Shown here: positions 15,511 to 55,016 of the stretch, piece after piece
How positions within the stretch are numbered: the first letter of the stretch is position 1
How the letters are laid out: each line of letters opens with the position of its first letter
From: a virus
Taxonomy: Duplodnaviria > Heunggongvirae > Uroviricota > Caudoviricetes
DNA: 64,000 nucleotides
Direction: 5' to 3' (one strand)
IMG/VR virus record: IMGVR_UViG_2778261540_000003
Program-made: the position numbers and the translations under genes
The notes under the pieces: model-generated
What the model was told of the DNA's origin: nothing
Databases searched by the model: none
What the model saw: the letters and a program-made list of their open reading frames with translations, nothing else

Positions 15511-16017
15511 TTGAGTATTTTCAATAAACACGCACACCAGGAACGTCCGTATATCGTCATAGTTGATATTGATGGAACAATATCAGAGGCAACTGAAGAC
15601 AGACTGCATTTGCTTCCGCCACCAGGTAAAGGTGCATTAACAAAGGACTGGAACGAGTTTAATCTCGCCTGTGACACCGATACTCCCATCACTCCAGTTA
15701 TTGATATGGTGCGCCAGTTATTTAACGTTTACACGGTCTGGTTTGTAACCGGGCGCTGTGAGATCGCAAGGGATAAAACACTAGCCTGGCTGCGGAAGTA
15801 CGTAACAAACGGGGCTGAGCCTTTGCTATCTATGCGTCCTGCCACCGATGACAGAAATGACGGCCCAGCAAAGATTGATCTCCTTAAGAAAATTGGTCTA
15901 AGTAAAATCGCGTTCGCGCTGGAAGATAAGATTGAAGTGGCGCGTGTTTTCAGGAGGCACGGCGTGCTTACGTTAATGGTCAGGGAGTATGAAAACGCGC
16001 TTCTCCATCAACAATGA
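15511..16017 (+). CDS. HAD-superfamily phosphatase-like protein
   Basis: IVIVDIDGTI HAD motif I near the N-terminus; 168 aa. Confidence 0.5.
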   Translation: MSIFNKHAHQERPYIVIVDIDGTISEATEDRLHLLPPPGKGALTKDWNEFNLACDTDTPITPVIDMVRQLFNVYTVWFVTGRCEIARDKTLAWLRKYVTNGAEPLLSMRPATDDRNDGPAKIDLLKKIGLSKIAFALEDKIEVARVFRRHGVLTLMVREYENALLHQQ

Positions 16018-16033
16018 TTGCTCTAATAAATAT
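16017..16033 (+). promoter_or_regulatory. C1 operator-like site
   Basis: attgctctaataaatat. Confidence 0.55.
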
Positions 16034-26923: not shown

Positions 26924-28117
26924 GTGACCTGGGACGATCACAAGAAGAATTTTGCTCGCCTGGCGCGAGATGGTGGTTACACCATCGCACAGTATGCCGC
27001 CGAGTTTAATCTTAACCCTAATACCGCACGTCGTTATCTCCGTGCCTTCAAAGAAGACACCAGGACTACGGACAGCCGCAAGCCAAATAAGCCAGTCAGG
27101 AAGCCACTAAAAAGCATGATCATTGATCACTCTAATGATCAACATGCAGGTGATCACATTTCGGCTGAAATAGCGGAAAAACAAAGAGTTAATGCCGTTG
27201 TCAGTGCCGCAGTCGAGAATGCGAAGCGCCAAAATAAGCGCATAAATGATCGTTCAGATGATCATGACGTGATCACCCGCGCCCACCGGACCTTACGTGA
27301 TCGCCTGGAACGCGACACCCTGGATGATGATGGTGAACGCTTTGAATTCGAAGCTGGCGATTACCTGATAGATAACGTTGAAGCGCGGAAGGCCGCGCGC
27401 GCTATGTTGCGTCGGTCCGGGGCCGATGTTCTGGAAACCACTCTTCTGGAAAAGTCTCTTTCTCATCTCCTTATGCTGGAGAACGCCAGGGATACGTGTA
27501 TTCGCCTAGTGCAGGAAATGCGCGATCAGCAAAAAGACGATGATGAAGGTACTCCGCCTGAATACCGTATCGCGAGCATGCTAAACAGCTGTTCCGCGCA
27601 GATAAGCAGCCTGATCAACACCATTTACAGCATCCGGAATAACTATCGAAAAGAAAGCCGGGAGGCGGAAAAGCACGCTTTATCTATGGGGCAAGCTGGC
27701 ATTGTTAAGCTGGCATACGAACGAAAGCGTGAAAATAACTGGTCAGTGCTGGAAGCGGCTGAATTCATCGAGGCGCATGGAGGAAAAGTGCCTCCCCTGA
27801 TGCTGGAGCAAATCAAAGCCGATCTGCGTGCTCCTAAGACCAATACCGATGATGAGGAAAACCAAACAGCATCTGGCGCTCCATCACTTGAAGATCTGGA
27901 TAAAATCGCGCGAGAACGGGCCGCCAGCCGCCGCGCTGATGCCGCATTGTGGATTGAGCATCGTAGAGAAGAAATTGCCGATATCGTCGATACAGGTGGT
28001 TATGGTGATGTCGATGCGGAAGGCATATCAAACGAAGCATGGCTTGAACAGGATCTGGACGAAGACGAGGAGGAAGACGAAGAAGTTACCCGCAAACTGT
28101 ACGGGGATGATGATTAA
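26924..28117 (+). CDS. pacA: Pacase (terminase) small subunit PacA
   Basis: 397 aa, GTG start after AAAGGAAG; contains the pac hexamer cluster. Confidence 0.8.
27117..27276. promoter_or_regulatory. pac packaging site (clustered TGATCA/G hexamers with Dam GATC sites)
   Basis: Four hexamers at 27117-27160 and three at 27245-27276 flanking a central spacer, as described for P1 pac. Confidence 0.8.
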
Positions 28118-29601
28118 TGGCCAGAAGTTGCGTAACGGACCCACGTTGGCGCGAGCTTGTGGCGCTATATCGTTATGACTGGATTGCGGCCGCTGATGTG
28201 TTGTTTGGGAAGACACCAACCTGGCAGCAGGATGAGATCATTGAGTCCACGCAGCAGGACGGCAGTTGGACAAGTGTGACCTCCGGCCATGGTACTGGTA
28301 AATCGGATATGACGAGTATCATTGCAATACTCTTCATCATGTTTTTCCCCGGCGCTCGCGTCATTCTGGTCGCTAACAAAAGACAGCAAGTCCTTGATGG
28401 TATTTTCAAATACATAAAGAGCAATTGGGCTACTGCTGTTAGCAGATTCCCGTGGTTGTCAAAGTATTTCATTCTTACAGAAACGTCTTTTTTTGAGGTG
28501 ACTGGCAAGGGTGTTTGGACAATATTGATAAAGTCCTGTCGCCCCGGGAATGAGGAGGCGTTGGCTGGTGAACACGCCGATCATCTCTTGTATATCATCG
28601 ACGAAGCGTCGGGTGTGAGTGATAAAGCATTCAGTGTGATAACAGGTGCGCTGACCGGTAAGGATAACCGTATTCTGCTTCTTTCCCAGCCTACGCGACC
28701 TTCAGGCTATTTCTACGATTCACACCACAGACTAGCTATTCGCCCGGGAAATCCTGATGGATTGTTTACTGCGATAATACTGAATAGTGAAGAATCTCCG
28801 CTTGTAGATGCAAAATTTATACGAGCAAAACTTGCGGAGTATGGCGGTCGTGATAACCCCATGTACATGATCAAAGTACGTGGTGAATTTCCCAAATCTC
28901 AAGATGGCTTTCTTCTTGGTCGTGATGAGGTTGAGCGGGCGACGCGGCGAAAGGTCAAGATTGCCAAAGGATGGGGCTGGGTTGCATGTGTTGACGTTGC
29001 TGGTGGCACAGGACGAGATAAGTCCGTTATTAATATCATGATGGTGTCCGGCCAGCGAAATAAACGCCGTGTAATCAACTATCGTATGCTGGAATACACA
29101 GACGTTACAGAAACGCAGTTAGCCGCCAAGATTTTCGCAGAATGTAACCCAGAACGGTTCCCGAACATAACCATAGCTATTGATGGCGATGGCTTGGGGA
29201 AATCGACGGCTGATCTAATGTACGAACGCTATGGCATTACCGTCCAGCGTATCCGCTGGGGTAAAAAGATGCACAGCCGTGAAGATAAAAGCCTTTATTT
29301 CGATATGCGCGCTTTCGCGAATATTCAGGCGGCAGAAGCTGTAAAATCAGGGCGTATGAGGCTTGATAAGGGGGCTGCGACTATAGAGGAAGCATCAAAG
29401 ATACCGGTAGGGATAAATTCCGCAGGTCAATGGAAGGTGATGTCAAAGGAAGATATGAAGAAAAAACTCAACCTGCACTCACCGGACCATTGGGATACAT
29501 ATTGTTTCGCTATGTTGGCGAACTATGTTCCCCAGGATGAAGTGCTTAGCGTCGAAGACGAAGCGCAGGTTGATGAAGCTCTGGCATGGCTTAATGAATA
29601 A
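28117..29601 (+). CDS. pacB: Pacase (terminase) large subunit PacB
   Basis: 494 aa; Walker A GHGTGKS and Walker B IIDEAS. Confidence 0.8.
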
Positions 29602-30797: not shown

Positions 30798-31037
30798 AAT
30801 TATGCCTCACTGTATTGACAACACAGAGCCTGAAGCTCTGACCTACTGTTTCACCCATGATCCATGCTGGGGTAATCTAACAACATTGCGCTGTGTGTAA
30901 GATGAGCAATGCATAGCTGTAATGCCGTTGTATAAGGTTTCCCTGTTTGCTCATTTCCTTCTGAGCCGCTCTACAACGCTGAAGACACATTAAATAGTGA
31001 ATCCAAAGTCGTATTACGAAACGGCGGCAAAACTATA

Positions 31038-31054
31038 ATTTATTAGAGCAATTG
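31038..31054 (-). promoter_or_regulatory. C1 operator-like site (inverse orientation)
   Basis: aatttattagagcaatt. Confidence 0.5.
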
Positions 31055-51939: not shown

Positions 51940-52073
51940 AAAGACCTCATAAGCGAATTTTTTACGCTCCAGGACAAACACTCATTCACAGCCAATACCG
52001 ACTGACTCGATCCCTTTAGAAGGCACAGGATAATGCAAATCACTTGTTAGCCACGTTTCAAAGATATACATTA

Positions 52074-52090
52074 TTGCTCTAATTAATTTA
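52074..52090 (+). promoter_or_regulatory. C1 operator-like site upstream of ssb
   Basis: attgctctaattaattt. Confidence 0.55.
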
Positions 52091-52108: not shown

Positions 52109-52597
52109 GTGGCACAACGCGGTGTAAACAAAGTCATCCTGATTGGTACCCTGGGGCAAGACCCGGAGATCAGGTATATACCAAATGGCGGAGCGGTCGG
52201 AAGACTCAGCATCGCAACGAATGAATCATGGCGCGACAAGCAAACGGGCCAACAGAAAGAGCAAACAGAATGGCATAAAGTAGTTTTGTTCGGAAAACTT
52301 GCTGAAATTGCGAGTGAATATTTACGAAAAGGTTCTCAGGTCTACATCGAAGGGAAACTTAAAACCCGTAAGTGGACAGATGACGCCGGTGTAGAACGTT
52401 ACACGACGGAAATTATCGTCAGCCAGGGCGGCACCATGCAAATGATCGGCGCTCGCCGTGACGATTCACAGTCCTCAAATGGCTGGGGGCAATCAAACCA
52501 ACCTCAAAACCACCAGCAATACAGTGGTGGCGGTAAACCTCAGAGCAACGCCAATAACGAACCTCCAATGGACTTTGACGACGATATTCCGTTTTGA
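52109..52597 (+). CDS. ssb: Single-stranded DNA-binding protein
   Basis: 162 aa, OB-fold region highly similar to E. coli SSB, acidic C-terminal DDDIPF tail; GTG start. Confidence 0.9.
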
Positions 52598-52794
52598 ATG
52601 TGTAAAAAACGACTGAAAGAAAAGCGGTGGTCCAGACGCCGACAAAAGCACGAACTCGCTCAAAAACGCCAAAGTTGGCAATGGCACGCGCTTTTAACGA
52701 ATAGAACACCCCGAGATATTGCTTTCGCTGGTGGGAAAACATTCCTAACCAACCTGAAGGCGCAATACATCAGTTTTTAAGCAGAGAAAAGACT

Positions 52795-53589
52795 ATGACA
52801 GCACAAAATACTAAAACCATTCAATACCGCCTACGTAATGGCCAGAGTGTCGAAGTGACCATCAATAACGATGGAGTGCCAGGCGAAAAGGTTTCTATCT
52901 CTGATCTGGCTATCGAAAAAACCATCATGTGCCACCTTGGCTTTACTGAAGAAGTGAGCAAAAAGCATGGTGTAGCTATCTGGCGCACAATGGATACTGG
53001 AATGCGCAGATTCATTACTGCTCGTACCCCTGGTATGACCATGATGGACCTCATGCAGATTGCGCCGCTGTTTGAGTGTGAACCTCTGGATGTATTCAGT
53101 AATCCAGTTATCTGCCAGCAGTTATATGGTGAGATGAAACTCGCGGTTACCCCCATCGTGCTGCATGAAGGATCGCTTGCTGGCGTATGGAAAGTAGAGC
53201 GAATTTCAAGCTACATGCCCTTCCACGTCCATGTCAACGGCGTAATCACAGGTGAAAATCAACCTGTTTCAGTTACAAAGTCAGACCTCAAGCGTGCAAT
53301 TCTTGAAGCAAGTTGTCGAGTTATCGGCCTGGGCAAACAGTCTTATGTTTGCTTCCCCGCAGGCCCAGAAGGCCAGGCTGAAATACTGGCGATGGATGCC
53401 GATCTGCTCTGGCAAATAGAGTTTATGATAGGGAAAAGCATCATCCGAGCTGAAGAACTCGATCAGTACATTACCTGCACAATGACGGATGAGGTAAAAA
53501 GTGTGGCTATAGCCAAAGCCCGGAACCTGTGTCGTGCTGCATTAACAGAACTGCGAGAAAACACCACGGAAGAGGTGGAAAGTGATTAA
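52795..53589 (+). CDS. Hypothetical protein upstream of the PacB paralog
   Basis: 264-aa ORF; stop overlaps the start of the next gene. Confidence 0.45.
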   Translation: MTAQNTKTIQYRLRNGQSVEVTINNDGVPGEKVSISDLAIEKTIMCHLGFTEEVSKKHGVAIWRTMDTGMRRFITARTPGMTMMDLMQIAPLFECEPLDVFSNPVICQQLYGEMKLAVTPIVLHEGSLAGVWKVERISSYMPFHVHVNGVITGENQPVSVTKSDLKRAILEASCRVIGLGKQSYVCFPAGPEGQAEILAMDADLLWQIEFMIGKSIIRAEELDQYITCTMTDEVKSVAIAKARNLCRAALTELRENTTEEVESD

Positions 53590-54676
53590 TCGTATACAGA
53601 ATGAATCTGCCTGGTTAGCACTGATAGAACAGTATAAAGACAATTGGGAACTGGCAGCGAAAGAGTTGCTTGATATTGAGTTAACACCTCATCAAGCAAA
53701 AATTATTAACGCGATAAAGAACACCGGAGCCAAAGTCACTGCCACCACACCACATGGTATTGGGGAAACCTCTATTGTGGCAGTGATTAGCATCCTGCAA
53801 ACAATACTGTATTCGTGTTCCCGTACAGTGGTTGTTTCTCCTGCTATTAACGATAGTCGAAAAACAATAATTGACTATATGTTCCGTTATTGGGAGCGAG
53901 TTACCCAAAAACACCCTTTTCTTGGCAATCATTTCAGAATGCACCCTGACAAAGGGTTGGTGCATATCAGTGAAACATGGGGATGCGTCTATATAACCTA
54001 TTGTCTGAATAACGAAGTGTCTCTGGCTGGTTTTACTGGACCGCACGATCTTTTCATCGTTATTAACTCGGCGGAAATCAGCGATCGCGCTCATGCAGTG
54101 ATAACTGGCAATTTAACCAATTATGACTCGCGCCTGCTGTTGCTGTCGAAACCATCGGAACGCGAGAAAGGGTACTTTTATGATTCGCATCACCGGTTGG
54201 CCCATAGTAAAAACAATCCTGCTGGTTTTTTCACGGCGATAACTCTAAACACAGAGGATTCGCCTCTCGTTTCTGAAGCATATCTTGAATTCAAAGCCAA
54301 AGAGTTTGGTGGGCGCAATAGCGATGAATATCGCCGATTGATCTTGGGGAAATTTCCCGGGATTCGGGAGTTGATGGAAAAGTCATCTGTTCCCCGTAAT
54401 ATGCACTTCACAATGACTGACGGTAGTAAATGGGTAGTGCCTACGATCGTGATCGCCAAACACCATGCGAAACATCACGCTCAAAAACACAACTCCAGCA
54501 CATTAGACTGGCTGAAGGCCTATACAATACCGTTATTCTCGGCAAACCATAACGCTATAGCTGAATGGGCTAAACAAATCCCCTGGCAGGATGTGGCTGA
54601 AGAGGCATTTGTCGAAAAACCTCCGAGAGATTTGCACGAGCACTGTTGGCTGACATCAGAAAAGAGCTTCTCGTGA
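53582..54676 (+). CDS. PacB-like terminase ATPase paralog with degenerate Walker motifs
   Basis: Aligns to PacB residues ~50-290 (shared [17 protein letters not shown]); Walker A GHGTGKS is replaced by PHGIGET and Walker B IIDEAS by IVINSAE; no nuclease domain. Confidence 0.55.
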   Translation: MINRIQNESAWLALIEQYKDNWELAAKELLDIELTPHQAKIINAIKNTGAKVTATTPHGIGETSIVAVISILQTILYSCSRTVVVSPAINDSRKTIIDYMFRYWERVTQKHPFLGNHFRMHPDKGLVHISETWGCVYITYCLNNEVSLAGFTGPHDLFIVINSAEISDRAHAVITGNLTNYDSRLLLLSKPSEREKGYFYDSHHRLAHSKNNPAGFFTAITLNTEDSPLVSEAYLEFKAKEFGGRNSDEYRRLILGKFPGIRELMEKSSVPRNMHFTMTDGSKWVVPTIVIAKHHAKHHAQKHNSSTLDWLKAYTIPLFSANHNAIAEWAKQIPWQDVAEEAFVEKPPRDLHEHCWLTSEKSFS

Positions 54677-54707
54677 GGTAAAAATCCCGCCGATTGGCGG
54701 GATTTCT

Positions 54708-55016
54708 TTAATATATGATCTGGTCTATATGATCACCAAAATCATCGTCGTCGTCCTCATCGCCACCATCTACTGCTGGCCAATCAACAAACCAGCCAGC
54801 GTAAAGATACAGCGTTCGGAGAACATCACTTGCGGGAGCATCAAGGGTGTTAACGAATCCCATATAGCTATTGGGATTTGCTCCAGCTATGGCTTCAGCG
54901 ATCATGTCCTCGGTAATGTCACCGGAGATAATGCTTAAACGCCCGGAAACTTCTTCATTATCATCAAATTCGATAATGGCATCTCCGCCTAATGGCGCTG
55001 CGATTTTAATCTGCAT
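54708..55016 (-). CDS. Small acidic protein at the end of the darA operon
   Basis: 102 aa, very acidic C-terminal region (DGGDEDDDDDFGD). Confidence 0.4.
   Translation of the reverse strand: MQIKIAAPLGGDAIIEFDDNEEVSGRLSIISGDITEDMIAEAIAGANPNSYMGFVNTLDAPASDVLRTLYLYAGWFVDWPAVDGGDEDDDDDFGDHIDQIIY

Follow-up and report, generated by a model that had tools for sequence, protein, structure and literature searches.

Background

The large terminase subunit, TerL, is usually treated as a single-copy hallmark enzyme of tailed phages. Here we report on a second TerL-like gene in the IMG/VR virus record IMGVR_UViG_2778261540_000003, of which a stretch of 64,000 nucleotides (in the following, the window) was analysed. 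Punavirus P1 MH422554 and many ≈90-100-kb plasmids of Escherichia coli and Salmonella match the region at 100% identity, and the element is therefore a P1-type phage-plasmid. Apart from an intact pair of terminase genes, pacA and pacB, it carries a gene for a protein of 364 amino acids (aa) that resembles the ATPase half of PacB; this gene is situated ≈25 kb away from pacA-pacB, and is not next to a small terminase or portal gene.

Among known systems, PacB of P1 is homologous to the 364-aa protein over the whole ATPase domain; the homology takes in the PacB-specific N-terminal helices as well as the Q and lid motifs. The two have the same predicted fold and reside on the same replicon. Unlike PacB, however, the 364-aa protein is without the Walker A Lys and Ser, the Walker B Asp-Glu pair, the nuclease domain and the C-terminal portal-binding region, and its coupling motif is altered. 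Moreover, and unlike pacB, its gene is not located beside pacA, is optional and belongs to an operon predicted to be early. Inactive paralogous subunits exist among the ASCE/AAA+ ATPases, e.g. the delta and delta-prime subunits of the clamp loader. They share with the 364-aa protein that the fold is kept while catalytic residues are lost under purifying selection and an active paralog is present, which predicts a role in binding or regulation, but the 364-aa gene is accessory rather than core and a complex with its active paralog is only hypothetical. The Ppi proteins of Staphylococcus aureus pathogenicity islands (SaPI) and the Rpp proteins of phage-inducible chromosomal islands (PICI) are small non-enzymatic satellite proteins that bind the small terminase and are not terminase homologues. 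Their binding to terminase components may offer an analogy for the 364-aa protein, although they are satellite-encoded and without sequence relation to it, whereas the latter is a phage-encoded terminase homologue.

Phage T4, which has a complete terminase, likewise has a second, nuclease-less terminase-ATPase-like protein, vs.8, a homologue of the gp17 ATPase domain (bioRxiv 10.64898/2026.04.30.721860). Compared by description, the two differ in that the Walker motifs are intact in vs.8 but lost in the P1-type family. The locus of the 364-aa gene is the same as that of isaA-IS1-isaB in P1, referred to as variable region 2 or RD-2 and one of approximately eight variable regions of P1-like phage-plasmids according to the passages on this region in two reports (PMC9603915, PMC6906374); those passages do not mention PacB-like cargo, and the reference P1 has IS1 and an unrelated isaB in this place. 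In the searchable literature on dead, truncated or decoy terminases we found no description of a family of dead PacB paralogs.

Sequence comparison with PacB

The first-pass annotation of the window, made from the letters alone, had proposed that the 364-aa product aligns to the ATPase half of PacB, that the Walker A lysine and the Walker B acidic pair have been replaced, and that the nuclease half is absent. All of this held. Specifically, BLASTP aligned residues 11-285 with residues 11-289 of the window PacB at 34% identity and a significant E value (2e-50), and tblastn against PacB of P1, P7 and D6 agreed with this result. The identity is 33-36% to PacB-type proteins vs 19-27% to other TerLs, and these values confirm the protein as a PacB paralog that is nearer the PacB type than other TerLs.

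Pairwise and 40-sequence alignments show that the PacB Walker A motif GHGTGKS has become PHGIGET; with Glu for Lys and Thr for Ser (PHGIGETS) the consensus GxxxxGK[ST] is lost. In the Walker B motif, where PacB has IIDEAS and the 364-aa protein has IVINSA, the Asp corresponds to Ile or Asn and the Glu to Asn or Ser depending on the register (FIVINS), a departure from hhhhDE. GKS and DE are present in every PacB-type terminase of the 40-sequence alignment and absent from the query, its 98% relative and its 53% relative. In the same alignment the PacB nuclease motifs have no aligned counterpart, and residues 263-364 belong to another domain family than the RNase H-like nucleases. Thus, at the level of sequence, the observation of a PacB paralog without Walker motifs and nuclease is confirmed, and the motif loss predicts that the protein can hardly hydrolyse ATP. 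Pfam and NCBIfam have no family for it. Among the PHROGs, it matches PHROG 5902 in full length (residues 1-364 vs profile positions 1-359, E 5e-184) and has a weak TerL match (phrog_2, E 1e-7).

Predicted structure and domain make-up

The AlphaFold 2 (AF2) model of the 364-aa protein, calculated with a 72-sequence alignment, has a mean predicted local distance difference test score (pLDDT) of 87.8 and a predicted template modelling score (pTM) of 0.82. Foldseek against PDB placed terminase ATPase domains first (Sf6 gp2, P74-26, HK97, D6E and T4 gp17; Sf6 gp2 at 6e-10 and P74-26 with TMt 0.66), while against BFVD viral large terminases were found. We therefore infer a TerL-type ATPase fold plus a small unrelated domain. 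The structure prediction returned a confident TerL ATPase fold, and in the model residues 1-262 adopt the TerL-type ASCE ATPase fold.

Residues 263-350 are modelled as a beta-hairpin followed by three helices with a pLDDT of 70-80. This C-terminal domain has the signature tMpDGSeW.vP..viA..HA..yA...T.PLF....I.dWA....W.dv (residues ≈270-350); Pfam and PDB profile searches with it gave nothing, and phrog_17928 was the sole match found. The module stands alone in P0243 (numbers beginning with P and L are our handles for proteins and loci, respectively) and in Cronobacter phage JK004 gp35, whose gene adjoins that of a DnaB-like helicase (L085:3995-4291). It is N-terminal to a dead ATPase in P0142 and occupies the C-terminus of Xanthomonas CP2 ORF36, encoded beside Erf, exonuclease and SSB genes (L086:1774-3309); the N-terminus of ORF36 has a weak DUF1351 match under the Pfam cut-off. 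A further occurrence is gp107 of Bordetella PHB04, whose neighbours are RecE and an SMC-like ATPase (L087:2992-3555). Judging from these occurrences, the C-terminal domain of ≈90 aa is a mobile element of the replication and recombination modules of unrelated phages that occurs alone or fused to other proteins.

Maintenance of the gene and its orthologues

All 21 IMG/VR copies of the 364-aa gene are intact open reading frames (ORFs) of 1095 nt with a GTG start. Relative to the window copy, the ratio of nonsynonymous to synonymous substitution rates (dN/dS) is 0.17-0.37 for the 15 distinct alleles, and the alleles checked share the degenerate motifs, apart from three in which the Walker B remnant has Ala for Ser (IVINAAE). 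An orthologue with 53% identity and the same 364-aa architecture is encoded by the E. coli plasmid pF719-4 (L075:4755-5849), another has 48% identity and 366 aa (P0124), and both domains are kept in these orthologues. The protein P0002 from a metagenome-assembled genome (MAG), with 438 aa and the name 'Terminase large subunit', is the pF719-4 364-aa protein with a miscalled start; its N-terminal extension of 74 aa is an annotation artefact.

Loss of catalytic residues together with purifying selection defines a pseudo-enzyme, and the motif loss, the dN/dS values, the intact copies and the diverged orthologues agree in this respect: the 364-aa gene encodes a folded, selectively maintained pseudo-enzyme and is not a decaying copy. 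That it instead is a non-functional remnant of a pacB duplication drifting to loss has in its favour that most P1-group genomes have lost the gene through an exact deletion from stop codon to terminator (see below), and that isaA and isaB at the locus are non-essential in P1 (PMC10695390). The selection data and the conserved GTG start largely refute it. In addition, the orthologues and a clade with identities down to ≈30% keep the length and a confidently predicted fold, and the gene has gained an extra conserved domain; we regard a drifting remnant as extremely improbable.

A family of dead PacB paralogs

A word-indexed protein search gave three relatives of the 364-aa protein, and eight with the family profile, while an exhaustive HMMER search of 1.84 billion representatives resulted in 644 matches. 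The motifs were compared in 154 sequences, i.e. the best matches of the 644 and four references. In this set, both Walker A and Walker B are intact in 118 sequences with a median length of 486 aa. Neither motif is present in the query, P0002, P0124, P0126, P0127, P0128, P0129, P0132, P0133, P0159, P0161 and P0176, and this dead set ends few residues past the conserved G.FP that marks the end of the ATPase domain. At least 11 diverged clusters (at the 50% identity level) are P-loop-degenerate and nuclease-less. The extra C-terminal domain is absent from most family members. As a side observation, the terminase match P0256 (675 aa) has a long insertion in the Walker A P-loop between SGTG and GKT, apparently an intein.

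A neighbour-joining (NJ) tree built from the ATPase domain separates 11 of the 12 dead sequences, as a single group, from all live PacB-type proteins; long-branch attraction may contribute to this grouping, but the derived signature TTPxG[IV]G is common to several members. Compared column by column, what the group has lost is precisely the catalytic set: the P-loop residues S56/G57/T60/K62/S63, the residues A86/Q91/K98, D162/E163/S165/G166 of Walker B and Q191/T193 of the coupling motif. Still present in the group are Gln38 of the Q motif, both P-loop glycines, LAG, FYDSHH, SP.V and GGR.S.EY....G.FP.

These motifs bear on whether the protein might still be an NTPase by means of non-canonical residues, so that 'dead' would be wrong. 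No variation is seen at Gln38 or at G59 and G61, the P-loop glycines, and in some members a Lys is found one position away (GIGHKS, GIGCKH) or Asp/Asn stands in for the catalytic Glu. However, the residue that replaces the Walker A Lys differs without constraint among clade members (E, R, H, T, M, I, C), and conservation does not extend to the shifted Lys. In Walker B, a hydrophobic residue or Pro takes the place of the Asp, and the Ser/Thr after the Walker A Lys, the coupling-motif residues and A86/Q91/K98 have been lost together. Residual NTPase activity is thus very unlikely in our view.

In four family contexts the contig also encodes a C1 repressor of the P1/P7 type together with a Cre-like recombinase. 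An intact PacA/PacB pair is encoded on the same contig in three of the four, and the view of the fourth contig starts at C1; three further family contigs are short or without C1, Cre and PacA/PacB markers. Among the plasmids in PLSDB there are 894 TerL-like places on 725 plasmids, and up to ≈170 of these plasmids (roughly a quarter at most) could therefore have a second one. Taken together, an old clade of dead, nuclease-less PacB paralogs co-resides, where the contig shows it, with intact PacA/PacB in P1-like phage-plasmids; since we found no description of such proteins in the searchable literature, we consider them a previously undescribed family. The first-pass description of a dead and nuclease-less PacB paralog was hence correct but incomplete, as it missed that the C-terminal domain is distinct and conserved, that the protein belongs to an old clade and that its gene is optional cargo absent from P1.

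Gene order and predicted operon

The gene order at the locus is prt, pro, lydE/D, lyz (- strand), ssb, the 264-aa ORF (isaA), the 364-aa ORF, hxr (- strand) and ddrB (- strand). The placing of the gene between ssb and the darA operon by the first-pass annotation thus stands, with hxr and ddrB of the dar operon on the other side. The coordinates are given in Table 1.

Table 1. Features of the pseudo-terminase locus and of the pac operon in the window
Feature	Position	Strand	Basis or remark
pacA, small terminase partner of PacB	26924-28117	+	order as in P1
pacB, intact large terminase, active paralog on the same element	28117-29601	+	
Operator of the C1 repressor, equivalent to Ossb/Op21, ATTGCTCTAATTAATTT; ssb follows after ≈20 bp	52073-52089	+	one mismatch to consensus
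ssb, first gene of the operon	52109-52597	+	ORF list; SSB annotation in MH422554 and NC_005856
isaA, 264 aa, conserved upstream partner	52795-53589	+	
Shine-Dalgarno-like GAGGTGG inside the isaA end, 3 nt before the GTG start	53572-53578	+	read from sequence
PacB paralog (pseudo-terminase), 364 aa, GTG start	53582-54676	+	
TerL-type ATPase-fold domain, aa 1-262, including PacB-like N-terminal helices	53582-54367	+	AF2 pLDDT ≈97, Foldseek
Degenerate Walker A, TPHGIGETS (PacB SGHGTGKSD), aa 56-64 in both	53747-53773	+	
Degenerate Walker B, LFIVINSAE (PacB LYIIDEASG), aa 157-165	54050-54076	+	
Extra C-terminal domain replacing the nuclease, aa 263-364, conserved core ≈270-350	54368-54673	+	
GC-rich hairpin with a stem of 10 bp, flanked by the convergent dead-TerL and hxr stops	54682-54705	.	
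hxr, first conserved gene right of the hotspot, convergent dar operon	54708-55016	-	

The operator ahead of ssb has its counterpart at the same position in NC_005856, annotated as the C1-controlled operator Ossb. On the + strand no terminator was predicted ahead of the hairpin that follows the 364-aa gene, and ssb, isaA and the dead-TerL gene therefore probably constitute one operon that is turned on when C1 is inactivated. The 364-aa gene is accordingly predicted to close this C1-operator-controlled operon and to be expressed early. Its start overlaps the isaA stop by 8 nt (GTGATTAA), which suggests translational coupling to the upstream 264-aa gene as was originally noted.

The window has 15 matches to the C1 operator consensus (with up to three mismatches) vs 0.27 expected by chance, including 16-32, 16017-16033, 31036-31052 and 52073-52089; this fits the dispersed C1 regulon of P1.

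Optional cargo between isaA and hxr

The window and the reference P1 (NC_005856) are homologous up to the isaA stop (53590) and again from the hxr stop (54708) onwards. Reference P1 is without the 364-aa gene and has 94 bp, IS1 and an unrelated isaB in this interval. Disruption of the 364-aa gene by IS1 in reference P1 was ruled out; the P1 sequence is unrelated there and loci with IsaB but without IS1 exist.

Sixty IMG/VR loci anchored on IsaA (L015-L074) were surveyed. The dead-TerL gene is present between isaA and hxr in 21 and the interval is empty in ≈22; the others have IsaB without IS1 (three), IS1 (two), a segment of 0.8 kb (four, with a 95-aa ORF in two of three examined), or a gene for a 454-aa helix-turn-helix (HTH) and HipA_C kinase (six), and two are cut by the contig end. 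In empty loci the hairpin AAATCCCGCCGATTGGCGGGATTT follows directly after the isaA stop, while in the window the same hairpin follows the dead-TerL stop. The 364-aa gene is therefore an exact insertion or deletion from stop codon to terminator, and the hairpin is probably a bidirectional terminator as well as the right edge of the cargo slot.

Among complete E. coli genomes, 100 of 5,426 have the 364-aa gene and 335 have isaA; hence ≈30% of the P1-group elements carry it. In PLSDB the numbers are 120 plasmids with the 364-aa gene vs 336 with isaA. A natural carrier is the 103-kb plasmid of E. coli UMNF18, with 100% identity over the 364-aa gene. In the examples listed, PGAP names the product 'hypothetical protein'. 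These data show that the 364-aa gene is optional cargo in a P1-group hotspot.

The hotspot, at 53590-54707, has at least five states (empty, dead-TerL, IsaB, IS1 plus isaB, the 0.8-kb segment and a 1.6-kb segment). The HipA-like cargo consists of an N-terminal winged-helix HTH and a HipA_C domain (L038:4933-6297, L068:3216-4580), and looks like a single-chain HipA-like toxin or defence candidate. The penultimate codon of isaA is AGT in the window and in the sampled IsaB, 95-aa-ORF and HipA-like loci, which creates the downstream GTG start, and AGC in the four empty loci examined (L023, L026, L029 and L058). The difference is synonymous and removes the GTG start codon.

The distribution of the gene has consequences for a housekeeping role in packaging, in which the dead domain would bind PacA and/or PacB early in lytic growth, as a hetero-oligomer or by titration of PacA, so that pac cleavage and assembly of the motor are held back or restricted for as long as heads are lacking. 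Regulation of an active paralog is a common role of pseudo-enzymes. Consistent with such a role, dead and live clades alike retain the PacB-specific N-terminal helices (DPRW..L...Y..W) and the lid motifs FYDSHH, SP.V and GGR.S.EY....G.FP, every contig of sufficient length that has the gene also has intact PacA/PacB, and the operon of the gene is predicted to be early. The kept motifs may, however, serve folding alone. Moreover, reference P1 and ≈70% of the P1-group elements package without the gene, which is far from the pac operon and in a cargo hotspot. Nor did we see a link between the gene and the PacB allele: the 100% and the 89% type occur in 4 and 5 carriers, respectively, and in 5 and 7 empty loci (matched by the identifier of the uncultivated virus genome, UViG). 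Regulation of packaging is consequently a doubtful, albeit real, possibility.

IsaA, Tad2-like genes and other contexts

In a second phage-plasmid lineage (L003, L005 and pF719-4) a homologue of IsaA (47% identity, E 8e-88) is encoded directly upstream of the dead-TerL orthologue, and the two genes overlap in two of the three elements. The order is cre, dut, Tad2-like, isaA-like and dead TerL, followed by humD/hot, with phd-doc in one of the three. Since the isaA and dead-TerL pair thus occurs at another genomic position, the pair is older than its present location, and the empty loci of the P1 group are best read as losses.

The second-lineage Tad2-like genes are at L003:8515-9201, L005:8590-9234 and L075:3551-3991. 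A Tad2-like gene (anti-Thoeris, DUF2829) is also present between ssb and isaA in part of the P1 group (L027:3290-3991). The trio Tad2-like, IsaA and dead TerL hence recurs in two lineages.

IsaA has no Pfam match and no similarity to PacB, and a PDB profile search gave chance-level matches only. As candidates, a PacA paralog (BLASTP E 13; hhalign probability <=0.1% vs PacA) and the missing nuclease half (hhalign probability <=0.1% vs the PacB alignment) were both ruled out. The single-sequence structure model has a pLDDT of 35.5 and is not informative on the fold. A profile scan of genome contigs with IsaA gave two E. coli loci only. In P1, isaA is annotated as 321 aa (NC_005856 21569-22531), but in the window there is an in-frame TGA at 52756-52758 (region 52627-52794), and the N-termini of distant IsaA homologues agree with the 264-aa start at 52795; the P1 annotation is therefore probably over-extended.

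Remoter family members have other upstream genes, namely one for a RecA-dependent nuclease of the Ref-like type, which overlaps the dead-TerL gene, one for a radical-SAM protein and one for a 102-aa product. In another P1-like lineage (L009:7336-8792; also L010 and L011) the Ref-like nuclease gene overlaps the dead-TerL start by 4 nt, and a distant IsaA homologue (25% identity) is encoded ≈3 kb upstream (L009).

Neighbours of this kind raise the question of a neo-functionalised DNA-metabolism factor, in which the dead ATPase and the extra domain would join SSB, IsaA or recombination proteins in handling intermediates of replication or recombination, with no link to packaging or immunity. The operon shared with ssb, the company of the extra domain in JK004, CP2 and PHB04, the family member that is translationally coupled to the Ref-like nuclease, and the proximity of genes for dUTPase, Hot and HumD in the second lineage are in line with this. 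Phage early regions, however, mix replication and anti-defence genes, which makes adjacency weak evidence; the extra domain is absent from most of the family and no DNA-binding motif was identified. We find this explanation improbable.

Proposed function

As ATP hydrolysis is hardly possible and DNA cutting is not possible, we infer that the 364-aa protein must act by binding. We propose that it may be a structural mimic of the terminase ATPase domain that is made early after derepression and interacts with a factor by which the ATPase domain of PacB is normally recognised. Candidate targets are a host terminase-sensing immune protein (of the Avs1-3 or Upx type) or the pacase of a rival P1-type element. 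The dead protein would bind its target without ATP-dependent contacts or activity, and in this way protect the element's own packaging and development. This non-catalytic mimic is the reading that we favour, although only tentatively and as something short of an even chance.

A role in phage-host or phage-phage conflict rather than housekeeping is suggested by the presence/absence pattern in combination with the neighbours, i.e. the Tad2-like genes, the anti-restriction operon dar and the HipA-like alternative cargo. The gene neighbourhood thereby suggests counter-defence as an additional candidate beyond those named by the first-pass annotation (packaging regulator, virion component or interference with other phages). 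The terminase ATPase domain alone is a ligand of EcAvs2 and Upx and activates both, and toxicity together with EcAvs2 is also a property of vs.8 of T4, the stand-alone TerL-ATPase-like protein whose Walker motifs are intact (bioRxiv 10.64898/2026.04.30.721860). In a more specific form, the dead copy would be an early immune decoy that occupies or mis-assembles Avs1-3/Upx sensors ahead of the real PacB, the loss of the ATP site making it a non-activating ligand; this particular version we regard as unlikely.

Several observations weigh against the proposal of a mimic. Binding normally activates Avs sensors, and EcAvs2 contacts ATP in the terminase active site (bioRxiv 10.64898/2026.04.30.721860), so a P-loop-less mimic may go unbound rather than inhibit. 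The invariant Q38 and the two P-loop glycines leave room for residual nucleotide contact. The neighbourhood support for a conflict role is circumstantial: the link of the 364-aa gene to anti-defence comes from its adjacency to Tad2-like genes and the dar operon, and PADLOC gave no match at E <= 0.1 for the 364-aa protein, IsaA or Hxr. Furthermore, the overlapping gene for a Ref-like RecA-dependent nuclease upstream in one lineage, and the neighbours of the C-terminal domain elsewhere (DnaB-, Erf/exonuclease/SSB- and RecE-type genes), point to DNA metabolism.

Implications

A conserved clade of nuclease-less TerL paralogs without an ATP site, resident beside the working enzyme, was not found described in the searchable literature. 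Some records name the gene 'terminase large subunit' (MH422554 and a MAG protein), and it can therefore confound phage typing and phylogeny based on TerL as well as the prediction of packaging mechanisms. Should the decoy reading be true, it would represent counter-defence by a dead mimic of a sensed viral protein, a strategy of which we found no description in the searchable literature; more generally, if the protein blunts terminase-sensing immunity it would be a new kind of anti-defence. Finally, P1-type phage-plasmids spread resistance genes in Enterobacteriaceae, and if the dead paralog regulates or poisons pacases, headful packaging and transduction in these elements would be subject to an additional, new level of control.

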